Virus record (IMG/VR): IMGVR_UViG_3300042569_003232
Coordinates: 1 to 64,000 of that record
Length of the DNA: 64,000 nucleotides
Origin: a virus
Lineage: Duplodnaviria; Heunggongvirae; Uroviricota; Caudoviricetes
Strand: one strand, 5' to 3'
Shown here: positions 5,898-28,608 of the stretch, piece after piece
Layout: every line of letters starts with the position of its first letter
Numbering within the stretch: position 1 is the first letter of the stretch
The notes under the pieces: model-generated
Database searches by the model: none
What the model was told of the DNA's origin: nothing
The model's input: only the letters and a program-made list of their open reading frames with translations
Position numbers and translations under genes: made by a program

Positions 5898-6078
5898 TAA
5901 TATTCATCTTATCATCTTTCCGACGAAGCCGAATCTTTGCAAGTTTTCTGGAAAATTTCTTAAAAATATTAAGATTAGAAATATCGCGGCAGCAATAGCA
6001 ACCGTATTTTCCACGTTTGTTTTTGCTGCCGTTTTTACAAAGTTTTTTCTGTTCTTGTCGAAAAATATCCATAATCAA
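5887..6078 (-). CDS. hypothetical basic Cys-containing small protein
   Basis: 63 aa, Lys/Arg-rich with CYCC. Confidence 0.3.
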   Translation of the reverse strand: MIMDIFRQEQKKLCKNGSKNKRGKYGCYCCRDISNLNIFKKFSRKLAKIRLRRKDDKMNINDE

Positions 6079-6476
6079 TTAAAGTCAATAACTGTCTCAA
6101 ACCTATTTTGCATTTTATTCAAAGTATGTTGAGGAACATTATGGATGTTACCATAGTTTTCTGTCAAAGTCAAGATTTCAAAAGGAATTTTGAGATTATT
6201 AGCAATAGTAATATATGGCTCAATTTCCTTTTTTGTTGTAAACGTGTTGCTGACAACAACTGTATACCCTGCGCTCAGTGCAAAAAAGGTGGCAGTCTGG
6301 CACCACTTGTGAGCATCCGGGACATGAGAAGGGACAAAAACATACTCACCATCCCGCTCAAAATACATATCTGCCTCATAATGTTTATATGTAGGATTTT
6401 CAGCAAGAATCTGTTTCGCTTTAGTGGTTTTTCCACTACCGGGCAGACCACGAATAATAATAAGTTTGTTGTTCAT
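6075..6476 (-). CDS. P-loop kinase, polynucleotide 5'-kinase-like (kinase domain only)
   Basis: KLIIIRGLPGSGKTT Walker A and a VVVSNTF block resemble the T4 Pnk kinase domain (KIILTIGCPGSGKST...VIISDTN). No HAD phosphatase domain is attached. Confidence 0.5.
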   Translation of the reverse strand: MNNKLIIIRGLPGSGKTTKAKQILAENPTYKHYEADMYFERDGEYVFVPSHVPDAHKWCQTATFFALSAGYTVVVSNTFTTKKEIEPYITIANNLKIPFEILTLTENYGNIHNVPQHTLNKMQNRFETVIDFN

Positions 6477-6764: not shown

Positions 6765-7076
6765 TTATTCCCAACTAATTTCTAAAACCAACCTTTTTGC
6801 TTTTCGAGAAACATTAATATTGATTTGAAAACCAAGAGTAATAAATTCTTTTTTAATAGCTTTAATACTCTTCATCTTGTTTTTATCAAGTTTGAAAAAT
6901 ACTTCGGTGTATTTGTATTCACCGATTGTTGCTGCATTCAATACTTTGGAAAGCAAATAACCAAATCCTTGAAAAATTTCAAGAGATTCAGTTTCTCCAG
7001 TGTTCTTGCAATGATTTATGAAAAAAGCTAAACTTTTAACTTTACTTGCAGAAAAATCTTTTGAATCAAAATTCAT
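6765..7076 (-). CDS. hypothetical protein
   Basis: 103-aa ORF. Confidence 0.4.
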   Translation of the reverse strand: MNFDSKDFSASKVKSLAFFINHCKNTGETESLEIFQGFGYLLSKVLNAATIGEYKYTEVFFKLDKNKMKSIKAIKKEFITLGFQININVSRKAKRLVLEISWE

Positions 7077-7083
7077 AATTTTA

Positions 7084-7326
7084 TTACCAAGAAATTATCC
7101 AACTGCTGTCTTCACCACGACGAGTAGAGCCAAAATATTCCAATTTATATCCTTTTTCTTCTAAAAGTTTTTTGATTACAGGTTCTACATGAGAAACACT
7201 GAGGCAGTATTGACCTCTTGCGATTGCACTATTTATTTGTTCAGACATTTCTACACTTAGTTTTTTAGCTTTTTCATAATTACCCTCGTCAATTTTTTTT
7301 TCGTGCTTCTTTTGCATCTGGAACAT
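7084..7326 (-). CDS. hypothetical protein
   Basis: 80-aa ORF. Confidence 0.4.
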   Translation of the reverse strand: MFQMQKKHEKKIDEGNYEKAKKLSVEMSEQINSAIARGQYCLSVSHVEPVIKKLLEEKGYKLEYFGSTRRGEDSSWIISW

Positions 7327-7341
7327 TCATAATAAGTGGAG

Positions 7342-7764
7342 TCATAGTGCTTTTAGTTGATTTTCAAGTTTTTCCAATTCCAATTTTGTGTTTCGAATTT
7401 TTTCTTCTAATCTCTTTTTGTCCTCGACGACTGCATATTGTTCAAAAATTTTTATTTGTTTGTCATAATACTCAAAATCAATTGAATATTGAATTAATTG
7501 TTCTTCATAGCGTTCGTTTTCCTCTTCCTCAATTACATCAAAAAAGACATCCATTTTATAATCAACATCCATTTCATAACTCATTTCAGTTATTTTTACT
7601 TTTTGTTGTAATTCTTCATCAGAAATATTCAAACGATTTTTTATACCATTTGCTATTTCTTCTAAAGTTACTCCTTCCCTACTAAGGGTCGAAATTTGTA
7701 TTCCCTGACTAATTCGCCGCACAATAGTTTTCTGCGGCATTTTTGGCAATCTCGGTAAAATCAT
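7342..7764 (-). CDS. hypothetical coiled-coil protein
   Basis: 140 aa with a Glu/Lys-rich heptad-like C-terminus. Confidence 0.4.
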   Translation of the reverse strand: MILPRLPKMPQKTIVRRISQGIQISTLSREGVTLEEIANGIKNRLNISDEELQQKVKITEMSYEMDVDYKMDVFFDVIEEEENERYEEQLIQYSIDFEYYDKQIKIFEQYAVVEDKKRLEEKIRNTKLELEKLENQLKAL

Positions 7765-7770
7765 TTTTAA

Positions 7771-8022
7771 TTAATAATTACGAAGGCTACGATAAAATCT
7801 TCGTTCATTTTCTGTCAAACTTTTCCATTCTTCAAAAGTGAGATTGTTAGGATTTCCTGTCATTTTTACCCATGCAGCATATTCGTTTGGCAATTCAGTT
7901 TTTTGATAATTAACTTCAGAAAAAACGAATATACTAAGAGTTGCCATGATCATAATTACTACAAACACTTCAGTTACAGTGTATGCAGAATTTTTCCTAC
8001 TTTTAGATTTTGGAATTTTCAT
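7771..8022 (-). CDS. hypothetical membrane protein
   Basis: 83 aa with a single hydrophobic segment (VFVVIMIMATLSIFVF). Confidence 0.4.
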   Translation of the reverse strand: MKIPKSKSRKNSAYTVTEVFVVIMIMATLSIFVFSEVNYQKTELPNEYAAWVKMTGNPNNLTFEEWKSLTENERRFYRSLRNY

Positions 8023-8898: not shown

Positions 8899-9396
8899 TC
8901 ACCTTACCACTGTATCTGGCTTTTGCAACCCTTTTTCGGGATTTTCTTGCCTATCATCCAGCAAATACAAAAGTCCTCGACAATACTTTTTAATTTGTTT
9001 TTCTGAAGGAGAATCTGCCAAATTAGAAAGCATGTCTGCAATTTTTACAACTTTTGCAATAGGATGTTTTTTCACTCTTTCTAGGTATTCTTTATAAGAA
9101 ATTCCTTTATTAAGTGTTAAAACAGAAACTGCATCAATTACTGTTTCTGGAATTCCGCCTTCTACTAGACTTTGGACTGTTACATTTGTATCCTCAATTG
9201 TATCATGTAGCCATGCGGTTGCAATGATTTCAGCAGATTGATTTTTCAATCGCTCTGCAACTGCGGCAGGATGAACAATATAGTCAGTGACCATATCATT
9301 TCTATAATGACCTGCATGAGCAATTGTTGCAATAGCTTTTGCTTTTTCTACCAAATTTTCATCGTTTTCCATATTTTTATTCACTAATTTGAACAA
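8899..9396 (-). CDS. HD-domain phosphohydrolase
   Basis: H..HD signature (IAHAGH...LHDTIED) typical of the HD superfamily. Confidence 0.55.
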   Translation of the reverse strand: MFKLVNKNMENDENLVEKAKAIATIAHAGHYRNDMVTDYIVHPAAVAERLKNQSAEIIATAWLHDTIEDTNVTVQSLVEGGIPETVIDAVSVLTLNKGISYKEYLERVKKHPIAKVVKIADMLSNLADSPSEKQIKKYCRGLLYLLDDRQENPEKGLQKPDTVVR

Positions 9397-10074: not shown

Positions 10075-10302
10075 TTATTTCAAAGATTTTGAGAAAAAGG
10101 CTAGTAGTAACATTCCTCCAAAGAATGCACAAAAACCCAAAACAAAAATTCCAAGTAAACCGTAAACAAGAATTACTGGAAAGAATACCCAAAACCATGA
10201 AATGTTGATTAGCCCAGTTAGTTTCAGAATTGCCAATAAAATGGTAATTGGAACTACTGGAATTGTGATTTTAATTGTATCTTTCATTTTAGACAGTTGC
10301 AA
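10075..10302 (-). CDS. small membrane protein
   Basis: 75 aa with two hydrophobic helices. Confidence 0.4.
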   Translation of the reverse strand: MQLSKMKDTIKITIPVVPITILLAILKLTGLINISWFWVFFPVILVYGLLGIFVLGFCAFFGGMLLLAFFSKSLK

Positions 10303-10843
10303 TCATTGCTTTATGTACTTCAATCCATTGAAGACAATTTCGAACTCTCATCAAAATAGTTCCTAACATGTTTTTACCACCTTTTTGAATATCCACTCCC
10401 CAAATTACATCGCCCCACCAATTTGTTTCTTCCAGAAATTTATTACCAGTAAGAAGAAGTTGACTTCGCAAATCTTCATTTCTAAAAAACTTATCCATTA
10501 AAATCTCAAACATAACTAAATATTTGATTTCTTCCCAATCACTTCGCAATTTTACGGTGCTTCCCCATTTTTTAACTTCTTTACAAGTCATTTTTTGAAC
10601 TTTTTCCAGTAATTCTGGACTTTGATCTTCTTTTTTTAGTTTTGCATACATGTATGCATGTTCAGAACTTGGAAACCTGTTTCCCAAATAAACTACATCG
10701 CATTTGTGGAAATTAGAAAGATATTTATATTCTCCGAAAAATCCCTTAATGTTATTTTCATTCCAAGTAATAATTTCTTTATAACCACCTTTTTCGTAAG
10801 GTTTACCGTTTAATTCTGCTTCGTCAAATAGTTTCATAGTCAC
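10289..10843 (-). CDS. NADAR (YbiA-like, DUF1768) domain protein
   Basis: FFGEYKYLSNFH...FPSSEHAYMYAKL matches the YbiA/NADAR core (F.....LSNF...F.S.EH.YQ..K). The likely ATG is at 10837; the listed start is GTG. Confidence 0.7.
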   Translation of the reverse strand: MTMKLFDEAELNGKPYEKGGYKEIITWNENNIKGFFGEYKYLSNFHKCDVVYLGNRFPSSEHAYMYAKLKKEDQSPELLEKVQKMTCKEVKKWGSTVKLRSDWEEIKYLVMFEILMDKFFRNEDLRSQLLLTGNKFLEETNWWGDVIWGVDIQKGGKNMLGTILMRVRNCLQWIEVHKAMIATV

Positions 10844-10873: not shown

Positions 10874-11632
10874 TTAGAAGTGGAATTCTTGGTTTTTATC
10901 CACAAATCCTGCAAATCCATATTTTTCATAAGCAAGGGGTCTTTCAGAATAATGCATCATCCACATTTTCTTTTTCATTTCTTCCGGAAGTTTCTCCAAA
11001 TCAGAAATATGACTATGTACTTTACTCTTGAATCCAATTAATGTTTCACAATCATGAAACACAACGTCTGCATCCATTATTGCTTTTTTATTAATGTTTG
11101 CACTATCACTGCTCCAATAAATTTTTGTATTATTGATTTTAAACTTTAATCCATATGCATCTTTATTTCCAAAAGAACAAACAATGTGTGAATTTCTAAT
11201 CAATTCAAAAACCACATTTTCAAATTCAAAAGCACTACATGCGTGACATTCGGCAAAATTAGACAAATGCAGCACTTCGTTTCTGTAAATTCCCATGCTA
11301 GGTTTCAAACTATCCCAAATATCAGTTATAACAAGAGGATGAGCATACAATTTCGGTTTAATTACATTGCCATTTTTATCCAATTTTGGTTCAAAATAAC
11401 GAGAAAAAAACAAACTCTCAAAGAAACAATGATCTGCATGTAAATGTGAAATATACACTGCATCAATATCCTTATATGTTTTTTTCCATTCTTCTCGCCA
11501 AATGAAATTACTGGCAACCCCAAAATCAATTAAAAGATTTTTACCATTTATTGTTAATAGTGCATTTGAATTGCCTTCCTTTAAACTTGCAAATGCTCCT
11601 GATCTTCCCAAGAATTTTAATGTAGCATTCAT
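10874..11632 (-). CDS. metallo-beta-lactamase-fold hydrolase
   Basis: HLHADH motif (HxHxDH) with downstream His and Asp ligand positions. Confidence 0.6.
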   Translation of the reverse strand: MNATLKFLGRSGAFASLKEGNSNALLTINGKNLLIDFGVASNFIWREEWKKTYKDIDAVYISHLHADHCFFESLFFSRYFEPKLDKNGNVIKPKLYAHPLVITDIWDSLKPSMGIYRNEVLHLSNFAECHACSAFEFENVVFELIRNSHIVCSFGNKDAYGLKFKINNTKIYWSSDSANINKKAIMDADVVFHDCETLIGFKSKVHSHISDLEKLPEEMKKKMWMMHYSERPLAYEKYGFAGFVDKNQEFHF

Positions 11633-12634
11633 TTATAGAACTTTAAGTTTTTCAATAAACCAATTTTTTGCTTTATTAGTCAATTCTTTTGAAATATCCT
11701 TTGGAGTGAATCCTGAATTAGTGATTGTATCCATTTCTTCTTTAATCGCATCAGACGTTACCCATTTAATATACTCGCCAATATTCTTCATATCAAGAGA
11801 TTTACCAACATCATTCAAATATGCCAAACCTCTTTCCAATCGGTTTTCAGGGAGAATAGCATCAACGCATTCTTTAATAGAATCTAGTTTTTGAACATCT
11901 ACCAATGATAGAGTCTTAACATTGGAAACTGAATGTTTTTCTCCTTTTACTTTGAAGATAAATTTGTCATCAATATATACATCATCAACGGGACTCCATA
12001 CAACTCCTTCACCAACTCCAGAAACTCCAAAGTATTTGCCAACAGGACATTCCCTCTCAACCTCGTTTGTAATCGCTACCAAATCATTTGAAAAACTTCC
12101 GGGATTATTAAAATCAATAACTATATTCCACACTCCAAAAGAATTTATATTGAAAATTCTCCTTTCAAGATTATTAGAAATAAAACTAGGATTAAGATCA
12201 ATCCATTTGTCATCTGCTTTTACCTTAAAAATTACAAACATCCTTTCCAGTTCACTAACTGCAACGCCTTTTGCAATTCCTTTTCCACACCATTCTCCAA
12301 AGAATGCTACAGTTTCGCAATTGTAAACACTTCGAATAAATCGGCATGCTTCCTGAAAATATTCCATATTGTTTGCTGCAAATGCCGCAAAACCGAAATT
12401 GTCATCTCCCGGAGAGATAACTCTTTCCCGACTTTGAAACCAATATTCGTCGTTTTTTACAACTACTGCGGCATTGGTTCCATGAATTTTAACGGTTCCC
12501 CTAAATTCTAAGACTGGAAGAATTGATTTTTCATAAATGGGACGACCTTCTGAATCATCTCCACGATAAGATGCTCGCAATTCAATTGATTTGCATACAT
12601 TTCTAAACTGCTCAATGCTGGGAAATTTAATCAT
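11633..12634 (-). CDS. RNA ligase, Rnl2 family
   Basis: Motif I KIHGTN, motif III FFGEWCG, motif IV GEGVVW and motif V KVKGEKH in the order seen in T4 Rnl2. Confidence 0.75.
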   Translation of the reverse strand: MIKFPSIEQFRNVCKSIELRASYRGDDSEGRPIYEKSILPVLEFRGTVKIHGTNAAVVVKNDEYWFQSRERVISPGDDNFGFAAFAANNMEYFQEACRFIRSVYNCETVAFFGEWCGKGIAKGVAVSELERMFVIFKVKADDKWIDLNPSFISNNLERRIFNINSFGVWNIVIDFNNPGSFSNDLVAITNEVERECPVGKYFGVSGVGEGVVWSPVDDVYIDDKFIFKVKGEKHSVSNVKTLSLVDVQKLDSIKECVDAILPENRLERGLAYLNDVGKSLDMKNIGEYIKWVTSDAIKEEMDTITNSGFTPKDISKELTNKAKNWFIEKLKVL

Positions 12635-12651: not shown

Positions 12652-13767
12652 TTAAAAATCTCTGATTCGGAGAAGTTTTCCAAATCTCGGAATGTTGTCA
12701 CTAGTAACACCAAAATACTTTACTGTCCAGTATTTATTTTTGTATTTTTCCTTGTTAGTTAGCAAGTCCCTAGAATAGCCGTCCTCGCCGTTTACGCCAA
12801 CACCAAAGGTCTTACCATCAGGCAATGCCATAATCGCTCTAGTAGCCAATCCTGAGCGATTGCCGACCCCTTCTTCAAGGTCCACAAGAAGGAACTCAGC
12901 ATCATCAAAACGTTTCATTTTAAGGAGACTTTCGGTTCTTCCATGAACATATGAAGAATTCAAGAATCGAATCATTAAGCCTTCATAACCCATTGAAATA
13001 AATTTATTTTCCTGTTCAAAAAGTTCCGCTTCGTTATCAACATATACGGAAGGAACAATTTTTACTTTATTAAATTTATTTGAATCATTCAACAAGTCGT
13101 GTACCAATCCTTCTCTCAAAACCATGGGCCATACACTGTGTTTTCCTGCAATATCATAAACATGATATTCTATCAGATTTTTAGATTCCTCTAATTGTTT
13201 TTTTGTTACCTTTTGTTTTCGAATAATCGACATTATCTTTTCAAATTCATTTTTCAATGAATGATTATACAATTCTCCATCCAATACCATTCCTTCTTCT
13301 AAAACATCTTTCAATTCATCTAGAATATGGGGAATTGAAACAATTTCTTCTCCTTTTCTAGTTTGAGCATATGGCTTTCCATCTTTTAGATAAATTATAC
13401 ATCTTCCGCCGTCCAATTTTGGTTGAACAATTACAGGATAAACAATTTTATGTTTTTCGTCCTGATATTTTTTTGCCAGCATTGGCTCAAAAAACTTTTG
13501 AACAATATTATGCTGGTCCAGTGAACCATTTTGTTCCAACTTTTTTTGCCACTTGGATTCTGCTTCTGCAATTGCTTGTTCAAACCCATTCCGATAATTC
13601 GCTTTTCCTTTATTTTTAGGCAAGCATTTTGTAAACTTTGAAACTGTTTGTTTACCATCAATCAAACCTTCAATTGTTCGAAATGAATCATCAGCTACTT
13701 CGATTTGCCAAATTCTCGTTCTTTTTGATTTATCTAAGCTGTAAATTGGAGGAAATGTTTTATTCAT
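12652..13767 (-). CDS. ATP-dependent DNA ligase
   Basis: Motif I PKLDGGR, motif III LDGELY, motif IV EGLMIR and motif V LLKMKRF. Confidence 0.8.
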   Translation of the reverse strand: MNKTFPPIYSLDKSKRTRIWQIEVADDSFRTIEGLIDGKQTVSKFTKCLPKNKGKANYRNGFEQAIAEAESKWQKKLEQNGSLDQHNIVQKFFEPMLAKKYQDEKHKIVYPVIVQPKLDGGRCIIYLKDGKPYAQTRKGEEIVSIPHILDELKDVLEEGMVLDGELYNHSLKNEFEKIMSIIRKQKVTKKQLEESKNLIEYHVYDIAGKHSVWPMVLREGLVHDLLNDSNKFNKVKIVPSVYVDNEAELFEQENKFISMGYEGLMIRFLNSSYVHGRTESLLKMKRFDDAEFLLVDLEEGVGNRSGLATRAIMALPDGKTFGVGVNGEDGYSRDLLTNKEKYKNKYWTVKYFGVTSDNIPRFGKLLRIRDF

Positions 13768-13926: not shown

Positions 13927-14436
13927 TCATTCTTTGATTATATATTCTTGAACAAGTTCGTCAACCATTTTTTCATAAGGGTGCAGTTCTCTTGGATAAA
14001 TCTCTTTAACATTTCTTTTAATTTCCCATGTCTGCTTTAAACCACGGGATAATTCTTTTGCATTTATTTCTTTGCATTTATCAAGAAATTCCCGCCCGAT
14101 GGAGAGTCGCAACTTATATTCTCTTTTAGAAATATAGTAAGCATCGTTATAACCTACTAAATTTTGGAAATTTACAGATGCGAGCATTCCATAAAATAAT
14201 GAATTTTTAGCTGTGAGATAATCTAAATTAAAGCCCATGATTGCTCTAAGAACCAATTCTTTTTCAGAACTATTCAGTTTATGAAGACTCATATCAAACA
14301 TGGCTGAATGTTTTACCATCCACTCATTTTCAATACCAGCATCACTCCATTCTTTAATAATGGAGTCAATATGTTTACGAGATAAACGTTTGGGATATTT
14401 TCTCCTTATCTCGTTTGCTTGTTTATAATCAATCAT
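13927..14436 (-). CDS. hypothetical protein
   Basis: 169-aa ORF. Confidence 0.4.
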   Translation of the reverse strand: MIDYKQANEIRRKYPKRLSRKHIDSIIKEWSDAGIENEWMVKHSAMFDMSLHKLNSSEKELVLRAIMGFNLDYLTAKNSLFYGMLASVNFQNLVGYNDAYYISKREYKLRLSIGREFLDKCKEINAKELSRGLKQTWEIKRNVKEIYPRELHPYEKMVDELVQEYIIKE

Positions 14437-14701
14437 CGTATTTTACCGGATTTCCATCAATTTCCAATTCAGAACGAATTGACTCCTCTCCATTTTTATT
14501 CGACACAATTAGTTTTGTATTGAATACTGTTTCCTTGCATGAAATGATTTTATATGTAGGAAAAGCGTTTTCATAAAACTGTTTTACTGACAAACCATCC
14601 CGCATGAAACATTCATAAACAGAGAGAGGAATTGGAAGAATAACTTGTTGAACAACTCTTAGATTTTCGTCGTATAATGAGATTGAAAAGAATTTATACA
14701 T
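14429..14701 (-). CDS. hypothetical protein
   Basis: 90-aa ORF. Confidence 0.4.
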   Translation of the reverse strand: MYKFFSISLYDENLRVVQQVILPIPLSVYECFMRDGLSVKQFYENAFPTYKIISCKETVFNTKLIVSNKNGEESIRSELEIDGNPVKYDD

Positions 14702-15008
14702 TTTTTTCCTTAATTACTTCCTGCCATTCAGTTACTTTATGTCCTTCGTCATACCAGATAGCTGCCTGACTACTATCTTTTGTTTCAAGTGGAATATAAT
14801 TAATAATTGTTGTCCACTTTCTTTCCGGTTCTCTTGGCTTAATTCGCCAATAATCAGGAATGCTTAATAGATTAGGACCAGCACCAGTTCCATCATAATC
14901 AATCCATTGTTGAGAACTAGACTGGAAATTCTGTAAAATTCTTCCTTCACTAATTGCTTTATACAATTCAATAAGAAATAGTGATTTTGCAATAATAGTT
15001 TCGTTCAT
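14694..15008 (-). CDS. hypothetical protein, paralog of 18439..18744
   Basis: Shares ELYKAISEG...WIDYD...YWRIKPREPERKW with ELFTAISNE...WADLD...YRIKPEPRKIW in 18439..18744. Confidence 0.5.
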   Translation of the reverse strand: MNETIIAKSLFLIELYKAISEGRILQNFQSSSQQWIDYDGTGAGPNLLSIPDYWRIKPREPERKWTTIINYIPLETKDSSQAAIWYDEGHKVTEWQEVIKEKNV

Positions 15009-15213
15009 ATGATTTTATTTCATTGCAATTTTACGTGTATAATAATTGTAGTCTATTACAACAGTGTGAGGTCCGGGAATAGCAATTGGTTTCGAATCTT
15101 ATTTTTCATTTGAATCTTTTATTTCTTTTTTAGTTTGAACTTTCATTTTTGCCCGAACATTTGTTTTCGATGAATAATACTTGATTTTTTTGTAGTTAGC
15201 ATTTTCACTCATT

Positions 15214-16824
15214 TTATTGATATTTGCTAAGATTTTCCCGAACTTCTGAAAGAGTGTAATCCTTCAAGAGTTTTCCGTCTTCGAAAATTTTCACAAATTC
15301 GCAATTCATTACTTCACTCCATGATGCACCATCTTTAAGATAAAATTCGCTATTTTCATCTTTAAACACTGCCGTAAGACCCTTTGCAGATTTCTTGAAT
15401 GCAGCACCCTTTGGAGATTTATAAATTTCAAGAGGATTTCCATCAATTACCGCATATGTTGCCTTTACTGCATAACCATCAGTGTCACGGGTAACATATT
15501 GATAGGAGTAGCTACCAATTCCGAATACAACGTTTGTACTAGCAAACCTTTTCCTTGCCAATCGACTGCAAATTTGTTCTGCACGCTGCAATGTGATAGA
15601 ATCGCCATAAATCAATCCTACATGACTATCAAGAAGATCATAACCTTGTTCAGTAATGGTGCCTCCGAAAATCTCCCACAAACATTCGATACTACCATCA
15701 ATTTCGCTTTCAGAAAGTTCTGCACCTTTCAAACCGCCTGTTTTTGGGTCAGGACTGAGTTCATATTTTTTACCATTATGAATAATAATTTCATCGCCAT
15801 TATATCCAGTAACAACTTTAACTGGATCACCAGTATCAGGACGAAACACCACTTTGCCATCACGATTCAAAATATCATCTTTCAAGATTCGGGCAGTTAC
15901 AGTAATTGTATGCCAATAATCAAAACTATCAGCAACAATACTCACAATTCCCTTTGGATAAACTACTGTAATCAATCTCCGAACATATTCCACATCCGCA
16001 AGATTCATTAGTTCATCTTCGATAATTACCTCACCATTATTAGTTTTTTCGATCCGAATTTTATTAACAAAATCCAAGATAACGGAACATGCCACACTAT
16101 GTTCTGTTGCGGCAACACTTCCAACAACCAATTCCTTTTCACAATTTGCATTGTAATACGTTTCAAGAAATTCAATTACGGGAATAGTATCCGATCCTGT
16201 AAAGGAGAATGCATGTCCTGCTCCGCTCATACATGCGGCTTCCAGTCCAAACATCCCCCGGAAAGAGAAGTCGTGTCCTTGCCACTGCACAAAATCAGTA
16301 TTACCAACCGTCATCCGCGCATATTTATTCAAAATCTTTTTGAATTTATGCGCAGTCGTGGCACTCGTACACATTCCCCAAAGCGTTGTGCTTAGAATTG
16401 TTTCCAGATAATTGGTAAGCCAAAAGAACTTTTTGTGAGTATTCCAGATAATTAGACTTGGAATCTTTAGTTTATGTTCTGTTCCTTCTGGAAGAGACAT
16501 AATACAAATTGGAAGATATCCAAGTTCATGAAGTTCCCGAATATGACTGTCTCCAACTTCATTAGGCCCAAGATAGTTATTAATAACCCGAGAAAATTTA
16601 GCCAATACTTCTTCAATTGGTTTGTTGAAAAAGTTTTCATTCCATTGACGAATAAGATATTCTTTGGAAAAGTAATTTCCCCCGATATATACTACAGTGT
16701 CGCTATTTTCGCGGCGAGTGTTTCTTGCCGTGTAATTAGCAAGAATTAGTTCTGTTTTATCGGCATACTGCCGACGATGGTCAATTTTATATCCGTCAAT
16801 TTGAAGAGGTGGAAAGATGTTCAT
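15214..16824 (-). CDS. nadV: nicotinamide phosphoribosyltransferase (NAMPT/NadV)
   Basis: Blocks WLTNYLETIL, HDFSFRGM, AATEHSV, VSIVADSFDYWH, RPDTGDP and GLIYGDSITLQ are colinear with human NAMPT and phage NadV. Confidence 0.85.
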   Translation of the reverse strand: MNIFPPLQIDGYKIDHRRQYADKTELILANYTARNTRRENSDTVVYIGGNYFSKEYLIRQWNENFFNKPIEEVLAKFSRVINNYLGPNEVGDSHIRELHELGYLPICIMSLPEGTEHKLKIPSLIIWNTHKKFFWLTNYLETILSTTLWGMCTSATTAHKFKKILNKYARMTVGNTDFVQWQGHDFSFRGMFGLEAACMSGAGHAFSFTGSDTIPVIEFLETYYNANCEKELVVGSVAATEHSVACSVILDFVNKIRIEKTNNGEVIIEDELMNLADVEYVRRLITVVYPKGIVSIVADSFDYWHTITVTARILKDDILNRDGKVVFRPDTGDPVKVVTGYNGDEIIIHNGKKYELSPDPKTGGLKGAELSESEIDGSIECLWEIFGGTITEQGYDLLDSHVGLIYGDSITLQRAEQICSRLARKRFASTNVVFGIGSYSYQYVTRDTDGYAVKATYAVIDGNPLEIYKSPKGAAFKKSAKGLTAVFKDENSEFYLKDGASWSEVMNCEFVKIFEDGKLLKDYTLSEVRENLSKYQ

Positions 16825-17015
16825 ATGTTTTGTATTTTTGTTTTAAAGTTTAATTATTTTAGAAGATTGTCTAGTTTAGTTGATATGTTTTGATTAGCAG
16901 GGGATAGCGGATAGATATCTATATATTCGGAATACCTGATGGTACACTCTACACTATGTTCAGAAGGAGAAGGGATTCTATTCGGAACTTTTAGACCACT
17001 ATCTTTTTGTTTTGA

Positions 17016-17040
17016 TTCAGCTTTATTCAGCTTTATTCAT
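17016..17040. repeat. 2.5 copies of a 10-nt tandem direct repeat (ttcagcttta)
   Basis: cagctttattcagctttattca seen just before the stop of 17045..17497, inside a 220-nt non-coding gap. Confidence 0.5.
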
Positions 17041-17044
17041 ATCA

Positions 17045-17497
17045 TTAATTCAGCAAATTGTTAATTTTAGATGCTAGTGCTTTTTTATCAGCAAGATTAT
17101 TAGAAAGTTCACTTGCTTTTTGTAAAACTTTTCCAAAATCCCTTTTTGAAGTTGTTTGAAAATGATCTACTGCTTTCTTTACAACTTCGTTCAATTCTTC
17201 TTCACTCATTTCAGGAGGAAGAAACGTTTTTAAAATGTCGATTTCCGATTTTTCTTTGTCTGCCAAATCAATTCGGTTTCCTTTTTGGAATTGAAAGATT
17301 GAATCTTCTCTTTGAGAAACTTGTTTTCGAATAACTCCTAAGATTTCATCATCACTCAATTCCGCTGAAATATTTCCACTTCTCAAGGATGCATTACTCA
17401 TTGCATTTTTAAGTGCCCGAAGAACAGATAAACGAGTTTTATCATTGTTCTTCATTGAAGTCTTGATATTTTCGTCAATTTGTAGTGCTAATTTCAT
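17045..17497 (-). CDS. GatB/YqeY-domain protein
   Basis: 150 aa, colinear with B. subtilis YqeY (LSVLRALKNA...; FLPPEMSEEELNEVVKK resembles YLPEQLSEEELRTIV). Confidence 0.75.
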   Translation of the reverse strand: MKLALQIDENIKTSMKNNDKTRLSVLRALKNAMSNASLRSGNISAELSDDEILGVIRKQVSQREDSIFQFQKGNRIDLADKEKSEIDILKTFLPPEMSEEELNEVVKKAVDHFQTTSKRDFGKVLQKASELSNNLADKKALASKINNLLN

Positions 17498-17509
17498 ATT
17501 TTTTATTCT

Positions 17510-18397
17510 TTAATACCAAACATTAATAATTTTGAAGTTACTTGGAAGTTGTTCTTTTTCCAAATCCCTGTAGGAATTTGTAGAAATTACCAAATCATAT
17601 AGTTCTGAAAGTTCTTTATATCCTTTTGAGAAAATGCCATGAACAACCAAAAGGTAGATTTTATTCGCTTTTTTCTCTTTCAAGAGTTTAGCGAGTTCAA
17701 TGAATGTTCGACCGCCGTCAACCAAATCATCAAATATTACTACATCTTTGTTTTCAACATTTCCCTCCAAAGATAGCCCAACTATCTCACCTGTCAACTG
17801 ATTTCGGACTTTGCTTGCATGAAATACTGTTGGAAAAAATGGAAAACCTTTTGCAAAATTTTCAACTCTTTCTTTTGCGCCTTTGTCTGGTGCAACAAAA
17901 AGGAGATCCTTTAGTTCACCACTATAGTTTTCAAGAAAAAGATTTCTAAATTCATGGTCCTTGCTAATCACGCTCAGATTCCTGAATTTGTCAATTGTAA
18001 CTTTTGAATGCGGTTCAATTGTAAAAATATTGTTGAAAAATAAGTCATCCATCAAATTTTTGAAAACTTGAAGAGAAAAACTTTCTCCGGGACTGCAAAC
18101 ACGATCCTGCCGTCCATAAGGAAGAAACGGTGCATTCAAAAATAAGACATCATATGGTCTTATCCTACGAATTGCATCAACTGCCATAAACAATTCAATA
18201 ATTGAGTCACTGCTAGTCAATTGAGAATCAATTACAATGCTGGCATCTTGGAATGAAACATTCTTTAGTTGTTCACTGTCAATTCTGAATCCAACTTCTC
18301 CCGAAGGAAACTTCCAACTTTTGAAGTTTAGAATTTGAGTAGGTCCAGAATCTTTTCTATCATCTGTAATTTCGGACAATCTTATTTTTTTAATCAT
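17510..18397 (-). CDS. prs: ribose-phosphate pyrophosphokinase (PRPP synthetase)
   Basis: PYGRQDR (Prs PY.GYARQDR) and the PRPP-binding loop VVIFDDLVDGGRTF. Confidence 0.7.
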   Translation of the reverse strand: MIKKIRLSEITDDRKDSGPTQILNFKSWKFPSGEVGFRIDSEQLKNVSFQDASIVIDSQLTSSDSIIELFMAVDAIRRIRPYDVLFLNAPFLPYGRQDRVCSPGESFSLQVFKNLMDDLFFNNIFTIEPHSKVTIDKFRNLSVISKDHEFRNLFLENYSGELKDLLFVAPDKGAKERVENFAKGFPFFPTVFHASKVRNQLTGEIVGLSLEGNVENKDVVIFDDLVDGGRTFIELAKLLKEKKANKIYLLVVHGIFSKGYKELSELYDLVISTNSYRDLEKEQLPSNFKIINVWY

Positions 18398-18438
18398 AAT
18401 TTTACTTTTTAACTTTTCGTAGCTTGACGGTTTTTGGT

Positions 18439-18744
18439 TTAACTTTTTTCTACAAATTCGATTACATTAATTCCATCTTTTTCCCAATTTAGCGCATGTT
18501 CTTCATCGGTAGTCCAATCACAGTACGGATCATCAGGATCACCATTTACCCATATTTTACGTGGTTCCGGTTTAATTCTGTAATTATCTGGATACAATAC
18601 AAAATATCTTAATTTTATAGGATCATAATTTAAATCCAAATCTGCCCATTTTTCTCCTAGACTGACTTGAATTGTTTTCTCGTTTGAAATTGCGGTAAAC
18701 AATTCTGCCAATTTTTTGGCTTTATCTTTAAAATTTTTATCCAT
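18439..18744 (-). CDS. hypothetical protein, paralog of 14694..15008
   Basis: See 14694..15008. Confidence 0.5.
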   Translation of the reverse strand: MDKNFKDKAKKLAELFTAISNEKTIQVSLGEKWADLDLNYDPIKLRYFVLYPDNYRIKPEPRKIWVNGDPDDPYCDWTTDEEHALNWEKDGINVIEFVEKS

Positions 18745-18769
18745 AATTTTGATTTTATTATCGAAAAAT

Positions 18770-18791
18770 GCCTTGGAAAATTTTCCAAGGC
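18770..18791. terminator. bidirectional hairpin terminator
   Basis: Perfect palindrome gccttggaaaattttccaaggc flanked by A and T runs, after the stop of the SPFH gene. Confidence 0.6.
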
Positions 18792-18807
18792 ATTTTATTC
18801 GTTTTTA

Positions 18808-19698
18808 TTACTTCACCATTTCATTAAAATTCATCAAAGGCTGAATTTCTCCTCCAATGAACTTTGGCAATTCTCCATTCCAACCTTCAATTGCCCGCAT
18901 CTTCAATACATCTGGATTAGCACGAATACTCTCGCCTTCTAGTTGAAGGGCTTTTGCCTTTGCTTTTGCTTCTGCTTCATATGCATATGCCTTTGCATCC
19001 GCCGCAATTTTCGTTTTTTCCGCTTCCATCGCAGACGCTTCCTTGTCTGCTCGCGCCTTTTCCACCTGTTGTTGCTGCTCTGTCTTAAACCTTGACAATT
19101 CTGCTTCTTGTTCTTGTGCTTTTTGTTCCCTGACCTTTTTAGCAGTTACTCCATCTTGGATAACCTTTGGCAAAATAACATCCCGTACCATAACCTCTTC
19201 AATTAGAATGCCTTTTGTAAGCATATACTTCGACAATTCTTCTGTCATTGAAACTTGAATTCTTTGTTGAGTTTCATTATTAAAAAATTCCTCTGCGGTT
19301 TTAACACTGCGACTTGCTTCACGAATCAAACTGCGGGTTTTTGGATCAATATGTCGAGCAATAATAGCATCCCTATCTCCCGTATTTTGATAAAGTTGTG
19401 GAGCACTCTTGCTGTCAATTCGCCACTTAATTGAAATATCTGCTTGAGAAGTTAGTTGATCCTGACTTGGAAAACTAATATCATCCAATGTATAAACATC
19501 TTGACGACAATCCAGATCATGAACTTTAGAAAGAGGATTCAAAAAGTGAATTCCTTCCGGCAAAGTTTCATTGCTAACTTTTCCAAAGGTTGTGACAACC
19601 CCTGTGTTTCCAGTTGGAACTTTGTGACAACTGGAAACTGTTAGGCAGAATGCAGCAAAAGCAGTAGTGAATGCGAGTGTAAATGTAACAGGATTCAT
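18808..19698 (-). CDS. SPFH/Band-7 (stomatin/HflC-like) domain membrane protein
   Basis: N-terminal signal/TM segment, Band-7 core (TGNTGVVTTFGKV...) and a C-terminal Ala/Glu/Lys-rich coiled coil. Confidence 0.65.
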   Translation of the reverse strand: MNPVTFTLAFTTAFAAFCLTVSSCHKVPTGNTGVVTTFGKVSNETLPEGIHFLNPLSKVHDLDCRQDVYTLDDISFPSQDQLTSQADISIKWRIDSKSAPQLYQNTGDRDAIIARHIDPKTRSLIREASRSVKTAEEFFNNETQQRIQVSMTEELSKYMLTKGILIEEVMVRDVILPKVIQDGVTAKKVREQKAQEQEAELSRFKTEQQQQVEKARADKEASAMEAEKTKIAADAKAYAYEAEAKAKAKALQLEGESIRANPDVLKMRAIEGWNGELPKFIGGEIQPLMNFNEMVK

Positions 19699-19740: not shown

Positions 19741-19815
19741 TGGTAGACCGTCAGGGATTCGAACCCTGTTCACCAGATTAAAAGTCTAGTGCTTAACCAT
19801 ACAAGCTCACGGTCC
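19741..19815 (-). tRNA. tRNA-Lys (anticodon UUU)
   Basis: Reverse complement: GGACCGT acceptor, GCTT-GTATGGTT-AAGC D arm, anticodon loop CTTTTAA, T arm CAGGG-TTCGAAT-CCCTG, encoded CCA. Confidence 0.85.
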
Positions 19816-19971
19816 AGATTATCAGAATATTTTTATTTCAATTTAACAGATTGATTTTTTTGGTTTGCTGTAAATATTCTTATTTGATTTTATCGTCCTT
19901 TTCGTTAAGATATGTAAATCTTAAATAAATCAGGGAAACACTAAAACAACCGCATTAAAGAGTTTTTGCTG

Positions 19972-20181
19972 TCATGCTTTTCGATTCCGCCGATAAAGTA
20001 GTGCCAATCCTGCAATTGTCAACAGAACAAATGGGGATTTTGGTTCTGGAACAACTTGGGGATAACACTGCCAAGTTGTTCCATTATAGTGGCAAACACC
20101 ATCTGGTCCACTGCCTCCAAGAGTTGATAGTTGAGCATGAGAAGTAAAAGTTAGTAGGATGAGGATAAGGATAGTTTTCAT
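19972..20181 (-). CDS. small secreted protein with a PEP-CTERM-like sorting signal
   Basis: N-terminal signal peptide (MKTILILILLTFTSHA), short two-Cys mature region, then VPEP, a hydrophobic segment and RRNRKA at the C-terminus. Confidence 0.5.
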   Translation of the reverse strand: MKTILILILLTFTSHAQLSTLGGSGPDGVCHYNGTTWQCYPQVVPEPKSPFVLLTIAGLALLYRRNRKA

Positions 20182-20187
20182 AAATTT

Positions 20188-20433
20188 TTATTCTTTTGTT
20201 TTATCTGTATTTTTATGGGGCCAATACTGATCGTTTATATCTACTAGAAGTATTGCTCCTGTAATCAGGAAAAAGATAAAATAGAAAATTACATCTCCCA
20301 TATTATTTTTAATCATAGCAGAAATAAGATGGGCGGTAATGAGAATCATTGCAAGAGAGTAATACCCAACCCAAAACTTTGCACATTTTTGAATGTTGGA
20401 GAAACACTTTTTGATTTGTTCGAATTTGTTCAT
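20188..20433 (-). CDS. small membrane protein
   Basis: 81 aa with two hydrophobic helices. Confidence 0.4.
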   Translation of the reverse strand: MNKFEQIKKCFSNIQKCAKFWVGYYSLAMILITAHLISAMIKNNMGDVIFYFIFFLITGAILLVDINDQYWPHKNTDKTKE

Positions 20434-20491
20434 AAGGTAAACATTTTAGAAGATTTTTTCCATACGTTTACCGTGCCTTGTAAGTAAAGAT

Positions 20492-21001
20492 ATGGAACAA
20501 GAAACAAGTACCACCGAAACACCCAATGTCAAGAAAAAAGCTCAAGTTAGTGATGAAGAATTTATCAATGTTGTGAAAACTAATTTTTCAATTTTATCTT
20601 GTTTGAAAGCATTGAATTTAGTTCCCGCAGGAGGAAATTATTTGTTTTTTCACAAAAGAGTCAAAAAGTTAGACTTGGATACTTCACATTTTACCGGAAT
20701 GGGTCACTTAAAAGGTAAAACTCATAATTGGGCACCAGAAATTTCAGTTGAAGATGCTTTTGTAATTGGTGGAAGTTTATCTTCTTATAAACTTCATCAA
20801 AAAATTAAAAAGTATAACTTGAAAGATTACAAATGCAGTTATTGTGGGATTTCCGAATGGAATGGAAAAGAACTATCTCTGCATTTAGATCATATTAATG
20901 GAATTAATAATGATAACAGATTAGATAATCTAAGGTTTCTTTGTCCTAATTGCCACAGTCAAACAGATACATATTGTGGTAAAAATAAGAAAAGAAAATA
21001 A
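20492..21001 (+). CDS. HNH homing endonuclease
   Basis: CSYCG...HLDHINGINNDNRLDNLRFLCPNCHSQ is a canonical HNH motif with a CxxC...CxxC zinc site. Confidence 0.8.
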   Translation: MEQETSTTETPNVKKKAQVSDEEFINVVKTNFSILSCLKALNLVPAGGNYLFFHKRVKKLDLDTSHFTGMGHLKGKTHNWAPEISVEDAFVIGGSLSSYKLHQKIKKYNLKDYKCSYCGISEWNGKELSLHLDHINGINNDNRLDNLRFLCPNCHSQTDTYCGKNKKRK

Positions 21002-21088
21002 TGGTAGGAGTGGCGGGACTCGAACCCGCACGGCCCAAGGCCAGGGAATTTTAAGTTCCCTATGTGCTACCAATTTCATCACACTCCC
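21002..21088 (-). tRNA. tRNA-Leu (anticodon UAA)
   Basis: 87 nt with a long variable arm, anticodon loop CTTAAAA, T arm GCGGG-TTCGAGT-CCCGC, encoded CCA. Confidence 0.8.
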
Positions 21089-21168
21089 AAAATTGTATTT
21101 TTACTGTACCACCGTTTTTTCTCTGGTCAACAGATTTCTGCTTTTCTTACTACTAAAATTCTTAAAAT

Positions 21169-21244
21169 TGGTGCGACATACAGGATTTGAACCTGTGACC
21201 CGAGAATTATGAGTTCTCCGCTCTAACCACTGAGCTAATATCGC
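21169..21244 (-). tRNA. tRNA-Met (anticodon CAU), second identical copy
   Basis: 76 of 76 nt identical to 8811..8886. Confidence 0.85.
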
Positions 21245-27975: not shown

Positions 27976-28608
27976 TTATTCACTGGATTCCGCAGTTTCC
28001 ATATCAACTTCGCCAGAGTCCAGTTGCTTAGTTTCATGCAACAAGAAGTTGAAACTTTTCAGTTTAAATGCTTGCCATTCAAAAGGAACCATTTTTCGCA
28101 AAACAACTCCTTCTGCCCATACATCATTTTTACAAATAGTGCATTTCTTTTCCAGATAAGTATTAATCATTTTATCAAGAAAATCTTGATGCCAATGATT
28201 ATGAACACTCAAATCAGGAAAAAGATTTTCAGCCTTTCCATAATAATGTGTTTTGGGTGTTTTGAAACCGAATTTACGACAAAATGCTTCCAATTCTGGA
28301 TGAGAAAAAGTGTAAACATTTCCGCATGGACTTGTATAAGTTACGTTGAAAACATAAAAATCACAAGTATTTGGAGCACAGGAATAATCATATCCACGTT
28401 GGATAGGACTACCATTTGGTGTATATCCCACGATTTCACCCGTAACGGAAATGCCTTTACTCAACGAAGGGAAAATCTTATCTGCAACAATTTTCCAAAC
28501 ATCTGCATCATAAAAATGATTATGTTGTTGCTGATTTTCTTTTTTCTTAAACAATTGTTTTATTTTTTTAATCATATTTTTTATATCTCCATTTATAGCC
28601 ATAAGCAT
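27976..28608 (-). CDS. C-terminal portion of a split RNA-ligase-like nucleotidyltransferase (motifs III-V)
   Basis: GEIVG (motif III-like), AEGVVLRK (motif IV-like) and FKLKSF (motif V-like). It lies immediately downstream of the GIY-YIG gene that separates it from 29364..30197. Confidence 0.4.
   Translation of the reverse strand: MLMAINGDIKNMIKKIKQLFKKKENQQQHNHFYDADVWKIVADKIFPSLSKGISVTGEIVGYTPNGSPIQRGYDYSCAPNTCDFYVFNVTYTSPCGNVYTFSHPELEAFCRKFGFKTPKTHYYGKAENLFPDLSVHNHWHQDFLDKMINTYLEKKCTICKNDVWAEGVVLRKMVPFEWQAFKLKSFNFLLHETKQLDSGEVDMETAESSE

Follow-up and report, generated by a model that had tools for sequence, protein, structure and literature searches.

We examined a gene cluster on the minus strand of a 64,000-nucleotide stretch of phage DNA (positions 1 to 64,000 of IMG/VR record IMGVR_UViG_3300042569_003232, hereafter the window), in which genes for a NAMPT-like and a Prs-like protein enclose a gene for a YqeY-domain protein. 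The locus is very probably an operon of the NAD+ reconstitution pathway NARP1, which would rebuild NAD+ from ADP-ribose (ADPR) and nicotinamide and would have no need of NMNAT. In NARP1, Adps makes ADPR-PP, the pyrophosphorylated form of ADPR, from ADPR and ATP, and Namat makes NAD+ directly from ADPR-PP and nicotinamide (bioRxiv 10.1101/2024.02.11.579819; PMC12774641; PMC13586617). In the phage studied here, a host defence (Thoeris, DSR1/2, SIR2-HerA, SEFIR and similar) would split NAD+ into ADPR and nicotinamide; Adps would move the beta,gamma-pyrophosphate of ATP onto the terminal ribose of ADPR, and Namat would swap the pyrophosphate of ADPR-PP for nicotinamide, giving NAD+ in two steps without nicotinamide mononucleotide (NMN) or NMNAT. 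The identities of the two enzymes are evident from their sequences, and we infer their activities and the counter-defence role from characterised homologs. The initial annotation had likewise proposed that the phage restores NAD+ against NAD+-depleting defences, which agrees with our reading in outline; the mechanism differs, in that Namat and Adps would act rather than NAMPT and a phosphoribosyl pyrophosphate (PRPP) synthetase working through NMN. The core of the locus is thus of a kind already described, and its unusual part is the embedded YqeY gene.

All five minus-strand open reading frames (ORFs) listed for the module are present (104, 536, 150, 295 and 101 aa in order of coordinate), and the domains first assigned to them (NAMPT family, YqeY and Prs family) hold by Pfam, PHROG and NCBIfam profiles. 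The 536-aa ORF matches PF04095 (NAPRTase, 1e-30), phrog_448 (2e-178) and NF006629 (481 bits). Its best solved structure is PDB 9w5x/9w5w (E 4e-140), a chain with the residues that PMC12774641 names for SpβL1 Namat, with human and rodent NAMPT at about 1e-45. Namat is separated from Nampt by a clamp helix of the pattern GS-X-phi-X-phi-X-phi-TRD, in which aromatic side chains stack against the adenine of ADPR-PP, and by an Arg, Lys or Tyr in a loop (PMC12774641). We aligned the window protein with eleven reference proteins. Its selectivity-clamp helix (SCH) motif, residues 437-447, reads GSYSYQYVTRD, the same pattern as in ten other NARP1 Namats, and two NARP2-type Nampts have GGGLLQ[EH]V[TN]RD at this site. 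The selectivity-clamp loop (SCL, beta1-beta2) reads ARNTRRENSD, and its R37 corresponds, by alignment only, to SpβL1 R40. The catalytic core is fully kept (D10, Y12, F186, R189, D212, H242, R328, D330, G407 and D408; in SpβL1 numbering D13', Y15', F189, R192, D215, the catalytic His, R306, D308 and G360-D361), so the loss of catalytic residues that the initial annotation had named as a refutation is not seen on alignment. A tblastn search of 50,697 phage records gave a bimodal result, with 32-49% identity to NARP1-carrying phages, including FADO, ICP1-like, Staphylococcus K-like and Felixounavirus proteins, and 25-29% to NARP2-type Nampts of T4-like and jumbo phages; the NARP1 of FADO has been tested by deletion. 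Compared directly, the window protein and NARP2 Nampts are 26-27% identical. On these grounds the 536-aa "NAMPT" is a Namat, predicted to convert ADPR-PP and nicotinamide to NAD+. Its gene has a ratio of nonsynonymous to synonymous substitution rates (dN/dS) of 0.08. Relative to the SpβL1 structure the protein has two insertions of about 33 aa (~248-280 and ~342-375) between three aligned blocks, both of them common to the relative L018.

The 295-aa ORF is covered by the PRPP-synthetase domains PF14572, PF00156 and PF13793 and by phrog_619 (1e-68). Against a profile that we built from 72 Adps adjoining Namat on IMG/VR contigs, it scored 256.6 bits, close to the structurally and biochemically characterised ICP1 Adps (260.3 bits; PMC13586617) and far above E. 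coli Prs (139.6 bits). On TIGR01251, the canonical Prs model, the order of the last two was reversed: the window protein scored 146 bits, ICP1 Adps 98 and E. coli Prs 423, and known Adps (ICP1, FADO and a Felixounavirus-like coliphage) fell between 96 and 120 bits. The window protein is also under every NCBIfam Prs equivalog cut-off, with a best score of 126 bits against a cut-off of 296, and the E. coli Prs control reached 390-533 bits on four class I Prs models. Its PP loop reads DDLVDGGRTF, compared with DDMIDTGGT in Prs, it contains an HGIFSKG motif, and it ends before the C-terminal alpha11-alpha12 helices, which serve regulation and filament formation in Prs (PMC13586617). The catalytic Lys (K185 in ICP1, K162 in SpβL1) and the acceptor residues R87, H121, D161, D212 and D213 fall in invariant alignment columns; these residues are also found in Prs, so they indicate an intact active site and carry no signal of substrate specificity. 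From its profile scores and motifs we place the protein in the Adps clade: the 295-aa "Prs" is an Adps, predicted to pyrophosphorylate ADPR with ATP.

The arrangement of the two genes fits this assignment. NARP1 is recognised by adps and namat lying within ten genes of each other, and in the window they are on the same strand and one gene apart. Adps adjoins Namat in 75 of the 80 IMG/VR Namat loci that we collected, and a published survey put the linkage at 97% (bioRxiv 10.1101/2024.02.11.579819). The alternative is classical salvage of the NARP2 kind, in which a true Prs would supply PRPP, a true NAMPT would form NMN, and an NMNAT elsewhere in the phage or in the host would finish the pathway. 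Pfam and NCBIfam do label the two proteins NAPRTase/NAMPT and ribose-phosphate diphosphokinase, Namat homologs form NMN from PRPP in vitro (PMC12774641), and the window, at about half of a ~136-kb genome, leaves room for an NMNAT outside it. Against this stand the clamp motif and loop Arg of the Namat and its lack of the NARP2-type motif, the split in identities (25-29% to NARP2-type phage Nampts, 41-49% to NARP1 Namats), and the grouping of the Prs-like protein with Adps below all Prs equivalog cut-offs. Osterman et al. moreover detected no Prs activity in SpβL1 Adps and came across no phage that combines NARP1 with the Nmnat-dependent NARP2 (bioRxiv 10.1101/2024.02.11.579819). A tblastn search of the window with the NadM-Nudix NMNAT of phage RAS14 returned nothing, and NMNAT is absent among the 25 listed of the 56 Pfam families that match 105 window ORFs. 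The absence of NMNAT from the window, reported in the initial annotation, agrees with these checks, and it is expected, because NARP1 reaches NAD+ without NMNAT and no phage was found to carry both pathways. A last step located elsewhere or left to the host, as was further proposed, becomes unnecessary, since Namat would yield NAD+ directly. We regard classical salvage as extremely unlikely.

Several points nevertheless weigh against the assignment to NARP1. Function is carried over from homologs at 30-50% identity, and the in vitro formation of NMN by Namat homologs counts here as well. On TIGR01251 the window Adps scores somewhat nearer to canonical Prs, at 146 bits, than the ICP1 and FADO Adps do at 96-98 bits, and an archaeal Prs matches it about as well (E 7e-21) as ICP1 Adps does. 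The window Adps may therefore have some residual PRPP synthetase activity. In addition, the NMNAT negative covers the window and an incomplete set of families, and an NMNAT could sit outside the window.

The embedded YqeY gene, an element of the locus that the initial annotation overlooked as unusual, encodes a protein of which residues 6-148 align with positions 3-142 of the 143 in PF09424 (E 4e-37), that is, over the full length of the profile. It matches B. subtilis YqeY (PDB 1NG6) at E 2e-22, and its dN/dS of 0.22 indicates purifying selection. Such genes are rare in phages (26 of the 50,697 records), and where they accompany NAD+-rebuilding genes they form four groups. In the first, which comprises the window, L018 (YqeY 77% identical) and L020 (57%), yqeY lies between adps and namat. 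In the second it is found downstream of namat: one or two small genes separate the pair in the Bacillus phages MrDarsey, KoopaTroopa and PBC2, and IMG/VR locus L079 is arranged alike. In the third (L083, L108 and L126) it is immediately upstream of adps. The fourth is the NARP2 locus of the Stenotrophomonas jumbo phage RAS14, where YqeY is encoded between the NadM-Nudix Nmnat and Nampt, beside a NADAR-like gene. Among the 80 IMG/VR NARP1 loci, three have YqeY, each time directly adjacent and on the same strand. The four groups are only 16-31% identical to each other; the window group is 44% identical to a YqeY from a contig of bacterial context, and the others are 31-36% identical to B. subtilis YqeY. 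Each group is at least as similar to bacterial YqeY as to the other groups, and the data suggest repeated recruitment in at least four divergent lineages, a claim that rests mainly on these pairwise identities, as our YqeY tree is a neighbour-joining tree without support values. YqeY adjoins NAD+-rebuilding genes in several unrelated phages, and for this reason the linkage is probably not accidental. Among the papers searched, none that treats NARP1, Namat or Adps mentions YqeY or GatB, and one names both YqeY and NAMPT, though in two different phages. The presence of YqeY within NARP1 and NARP2 loci appears to have gone unremarked.

We tentatively propose that YqeY serves phage NAD+ reconstitution as an accessory and was recruited several times independently, a real possibility if somewhat short of an even chance. 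Such an accessory might link tRNA or RNA events with ADPR/NAD+ metabolism, or it might partner or regulate Adps or Namat. The competing explanation, that YqeY is an unrelated passenger, a tRNA- or translation-related gene of a tRNA region with no part in NAD+ reconstitution, has just under an even chance in our judgement. YqeY shares its fold with the tail by which GatB binds tRNA, and it still counts as a poorly characterised protein (PMC13374519). A YqeY gene of phage pf16 lies beside tRNA clusters (PMC5587285), and L025, the closest viral relative outside the NARP1 clade (46% identity), has its YqeY within a 14-tRNA array. The window module itself is 2-3.5 kb from three tRNA genes (2.2-3.5 kb for tRNA-Lys, tRNA-Leu and tRNA-Met), and in L018 two tRNA genes follow namat at a distance of 0.6 kb. 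Insertion of unrelated genes between adps and namat does occur, HNH endonucleases being an example. About half of the viral YqeY loci examined (L024-L027, L035, L037 and L120-L123 being those concerned) have no NARP genes within 8-10 kb, and one of these is the locus inside the 14-tRNA array; this, like the proximity of the window module to tRNA genes, counts against an accessory role. On the other side, a gene so rare in phages adjoins the core genes on the same strand in three of 80 loci, and across all the linked loci it takes three different positions relative to those genes. The Bacillus phages, L079, L083, L108, L126 and RAS14 have no tRNA gene in the 10-20 kb examined, the linked YqeYs form four or more groups, none of them nearer to another than to bacterial YqeY, a pattern in favour of repeated recruitment, and two other genes embedded in NARP1 loci, Adpp and RyDEP, proved to be functional accessories.

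Some further YqeY loci came to light in these comparisons. We did not count short human-faecal 'Bacteriophage sp.' contigs or Enterococcus and Listeria 'phage' contigs with YqeY, which are unverified records; four short faecal contigs (L030-L033) have a G+C content (GC) of 41-72% and may be bacterial. L028 and L029 have a 130-aa YqeY-like gene with a NADAR gene 8 kb, a more canonical Prs-like gene 6 kb and a weak match to the Namat C-terminus 1.6 kb away. Genes for LAGLIDADG and GIY-YIG endonucleases are close by, and the region may be a fragmented or intron-interrupted NAD+ locus; we left it as ambiguous. L020, a more distant relative, has two extra genes between adps and yqeY (6825-7987), one of them similar to nucleoside 2-deoxyribosyltransferases (PF15891); its yqeY and namat are separated by a DUF723 gene in the opposite orientation. 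As a possible NARP1 add-on, the PF15891 protein would act on an N-glycosidic bond.

The window comes from an uncultivated, low-GC, tRNA-bearing phage with a genome of ~136 kb that is known from metagenome contigs. Several Joint Genome Institute (JGI) metagenome contigs, the longest of 135.9 kb, hold identical genes, and the adps-namat arrangement is identical in four metagenomic contigs of the same phage. One close relative is from a freshwater metagenome, and no near-identical DNA match to the region was found in cultured phages. The GC of the window is ~31% and that of the module is 0.34, like its surroundings. The gene content of the window, with seven tRNA genes, a ribonucleotide reductase, ligases, homing endonucleases and others, is typical of a large phage. 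The features of the module are as follows.

Table. Features of the adps-yqeY-namat module and its edges, in window coordinates
Feature	Position	Strand	Description
Small gene A	14694-15008	-	104 aa; paralog of small gene B
Possible 37-aa ORF	15099-15212	-	Lysine-rich; JGI gene call in L004-L007 directly after namat, coordinates converted; status uncertain
Namat (nicotinamide ADPR-transferase)	15214-16824	-	536 aa; NAMPT homolog
yqeY/namat spacer	16825-17044	-	220 nt
YqeY (GatB/YqeY domain)	17045-17497	-	150 aa; between adps and namat
Adps (ADPR-PP synthetase)	17510-18397	-	295 aa; PRPS-like
Small gene B	18439-18744	-	101 aa; paralog of small gene A
Palindrome, terminator-like	18765-18796	.	Perfect 14-bp stem, AAAATGCCTTGGAAAATTTTCCAAGGCATTTT

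The palindrome sits between a gene for an SPFH/Band_7 protein and small gene B, resembles a bidirectional terminator and is 100% conserved in the relative L008; it is probably the upstream edge of the transcription unit. Reading from it along the minus strand, the order is small gene B, adps, yqeY, the 220-nt spacer, namat, the possible 37-aa ORF and small gene A, followed by overlapping, uncharacterised ORFs that lead to the genes of an ATP-dependent DNA ligase, an RNA ligase, an Apyc1-like metallo-beta-lactamase and a NADAR protein. The stop of small gene A overlaps the start of the next ORF (14429-14701), and therefore transcription probably runs on into the ligase genes. From gene orientation, spacing and the one terminator-like palindrome, we infer that the module is co-transcribed as a single minus-strand unit. 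Two gaps of 205-220 nt inside this presumed unit speak against that reading. The non-coding 220-nt spacer contains short tandem GCTGAATAAA repeats and is lineage-specific, being 23 nt long in L018. It is only mildly structured (RNA fold z-score -2.5), and for the 205-nt gap shuffled sequences fold at least as well. A riboswitch or other known RNA was considered for both gaps and rejected, given the weak or absent fold signal and an Rfam scan that found no family in either gap; the single match was tRNA-Lys, outside the module.

We also examined the two small genes that flank the module, which had been taken as paralogs bracketing a unit acquired or mobilised as a whole. Their homology holds on alignment: small genes A and B share 31% identity over ~100 aa by BLASTP (E 2e-7; identity range 31-36%), and each is the sole significant match of the other among 582 stop-to-stop ORFs of the window. 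The shared motif YRIKPEPRKIW occurs exactly in the 18439-18744 copy, but the 14694-15008 copy reads WRIKPREPERKW. A word-indexed search gave 4 clusters, which would have made them near-ORFans; this was rejected when an exhaustive HMMER profile search found 163 representatives, 24 of them at E <= 1e-10 and nearly all of ~100 aa, with the consensus ..GKTLQ..W.D..WRIKPEPR..W... The small genes are thus diverged members of a widespread, uncharacterised ~100-aa phage family. No Pfam family matched it; of 80 members, 19 hit one of two unannotated PHROGs, phrog_21668 and phrog_15048. An AlphaFold2 model of small gene A (predicted local distance difference test score, 81) matched no PDB fold at E < 1 and resembled only uncharacterised phage proteins, weakly. 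A Tad2/DUF2829 sponge for the Thoeris signal was considered and rejected; the N-terminal pattern is similar by eye, but small genes A and B have no Pfam hit at E 10, none of the 80 family members matches DUF2829, and the fold comparison with the PDB was negative too. A small gene A ortholog in L009 is 65% identical. The small genes have a dN/dS of 0.44-0.50 (0.5 for small gene B against its L008 ortholog), faster than Namat and the Band_7 gene (0.10).

The proposal that the module is a cassette with the small genes marking its ends draws on two observations. The only two family members in the 64-kb window flank adps-yqeY-namat exactly, and divergence from L008 jumps at the palindrome, from 98% amino acid identity and a synonymous divergence (dS) of 0.07 in Band_7 to 72% and 0.38 in small gene B. 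Set against these are the paralogs themselves, which are just 31-36% identical, so that the duplication must be old, and a module GC like that of its surroundings. Flanking DNA repeats as cassette ends were looked for and rejected, as no direct or inverted repeats bracket the module and the longest common stretch is 18 nt at 83%; nor is there an integrase, transposase or homing endonuclease within it. Synteny is broken in L018: an unrelated gene of 101 aa precedes adps, and the single family member, truncated to 71 aa, follows namat. The L018 Adps is 48% and the L018 Namat 88% identical to those of the window, and DNA similarity begins inside adps, where the sequences place a recombination breakpoint. 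L020 has no family member at all, no member was found in 80 other NARP1 loci, and the family also occurs in replication regions without NARP1, as in the one member examined in its context. Mobilisation of the module as a bracketed unit is therefore very unlikely; the bracketing is real in this lineage, with no sign in these sequences of movement as a unit.

The genes downstream of the module look like a counter-defence and repair region. Past two ligases, and 3.6-4.9 kb downstream of namat on the same strand, are genes for a NADAR protein (10289-10837, minus strand) and an Apyc1-like metallo-beta-lactamase (10874-11632, minus strand). The former matches PF08719 (4e-25) and also exceeds the cut-off of TIGR02464, a model for YbiA-type riboflavin-intermediate N-glycosidases, which leaves its substrate ambiguous. 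The latter scores 53 bits on PF23023, against a cut-off of 50, and shows a weak likeness to RNase Z. Both assignments are accordingly ambiguous or marginal. NADAR-like genes are within 7 kb of Namat in five of the 80 IMG/VR NARP1 loci. RNA ligase-family genes lie at 11633-12634 and ~27976-28608, and an ATP-dependent DNA ligase and an AAA_33 kinase-like ORF at 12652-13767 and 6075-6476 (all on the minus strand); a PTH2 peptidyl-tRNA hydrolase match is also found in the window. This suggests a capacity for tRNA or RNA repair near the NAD+ module. In nine of the 80 loci, Namat has an ATP-dependent DNA ligase gene no more than 7 kb away. A 157-aa HD-domain protein (8899-9372, minus strand) resembles RelA/SpoT hydrolases (TIGR00691, 5e-9; PF13328, 1e-4) and is possibly a small alarmone hydrolase, a candidate counter-defence function.

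Directly upstream of the module, the SPFH/Band_7 protein (18808-19698, minus strand) has a lipoprotein-like N-terminus (…LTVSSCHK; phrog_200 'lipoprotein'), and Band_7 homologs are within 7 kb of Namat in five of the 80 other NARP1 loci. Just beyond it (19741-21244) are tRNA-Lys(ttt), tRNA-Leu(taa) and tRNA-Met(cat); an ORF for an HNH endonuclease (20492-21001, plus strand) is inserted among them. A 69-aa ORF (19972-20181, minus strand) has a signal-peptide-like N-terminus and the C-terminus VPEPKSPFVLLTIAGLALLYRRNRKA, which scores 15.7 bits on the PEP-CTERM model TIGR02595, just below the cut-off of 16. If this PEP-CTERM protein is real, it would hint at a Gram-negative host that possesses an exosortase. 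At ~32300 the genes turn from the minus to the plus strand, and the cumulative GC skew is lowest at ~32-34 kb, which marks a point of divergent transcription and possibly the region of a replication origin.

The automatic names NAMPT and Prs steer readers towards a missing NMNAT, whereas the signatures found here point to a self-sufficient two-enzyme NARP1. The range of NARP1 is thereby extended to an uncultivated, low-GC, tRNA-rich phage lineage known from metagenomes, at least one of them from freshwater. The duplicated flanking genes are a lineage-specific curiosity, and the embedded YqeY is a modest but real lead. Since the first structure of a YqeY protein, 1NG6, the domain has gone uncharacterised, and both of the genes previously found embedded in NARP1 proved to be new counter-defence enzymes. 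If YqeY is indeed an accessory, this would be the first functional context for a widespread domain, as Adpp and RyDEP were add-ons to NARP1. The arrangement is directly testable, as three cultured Bacillus phages and one Stenotrophomonas phage carry it.

Finally, we compared the locus with known systems. Like the NARP1 of Bas63, SpβL1, FADO and ICP1, it encodes an Adps of PRPS type and a Namat of NAMPT type on a single strand. The Namat has the same core, SCH motif and loop Arg, and the Adps has the same PP loop and catalytic Lys and has likewise lost the C-terminal helices; no NMNAT was found in the window, and the genes are in an early or auxiliary region near ligases. It differs in that its proteins are only 30-49% identical to characterised members, in that its Namat has 536 aa through the two insertions, compared with 491 aa in SpβL1, and in that a YqeY gene and a 220-nt spacer separate the core genes. 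Two extended forms of NARP1 have been described: in NARP1-AP, the Macro-domain phosphatase Adpp feeds ADPR into the pathway (bioRxiv 10.64898/2026.01.28.702374), and the RyR-domain glycosidase RyDEP does the same (PMC13232231). As in these, a third gene on the same strand, in or beside the two-gene core, recurs across phages. However, YqeY is a small all-helical domain with no known catalysis and no evident link to an ADPR substrate. No Macro or RyR domain was found in the flanking and embedded ORFs, for which Pfam gives YqeY or no family, or among the 25 listed of the 56 Pfam families that match window ORFs.

NARP2, the pathway of KVP40 and of T4-like and jumbo phages that pairs Nampt with a NadM-Nudix Nmnat, shares with the window the transferase superfamily and the restoration of NAD+ under defence, and the RAS14 NARP2 locus also holds YqeY. 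The window protein differs in lacking the GGGLLQxVxRD motif, in its 26-27% identity to NARP2 Nampts and in its PRPS-like partner, and tblastn of the window revealed no Nmnat. Cellular salvage by Prs and NAMPT/NadV has the same folds and Pfam domain names. The window Adps nevertheless departs from cellular Prs in its TIGR01251 score (146 vs. 423 bits), in its PP loop and in the absence of the regulatory, filament-forming C-terminal helices, and the window Namat departs from cellular NAMPT/NadV in its predicted adenine clamp for ADPR-PP. The YqeY protein resembles standalone YqeY (1NG6; 8XJG/8XJE) and pf16 gp65 in matching PF09424 over its full length and in its size of ~150 aa. In bacteria yqeY usually follows rpsU (PMC13374519), and in the closest bacterial-context contigs that we found it precedes ispD. 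The pf16 gp65 gene lies by tRNA clusters; in the window, yqeY instead stands inside an NAD+ reconstitution operon.

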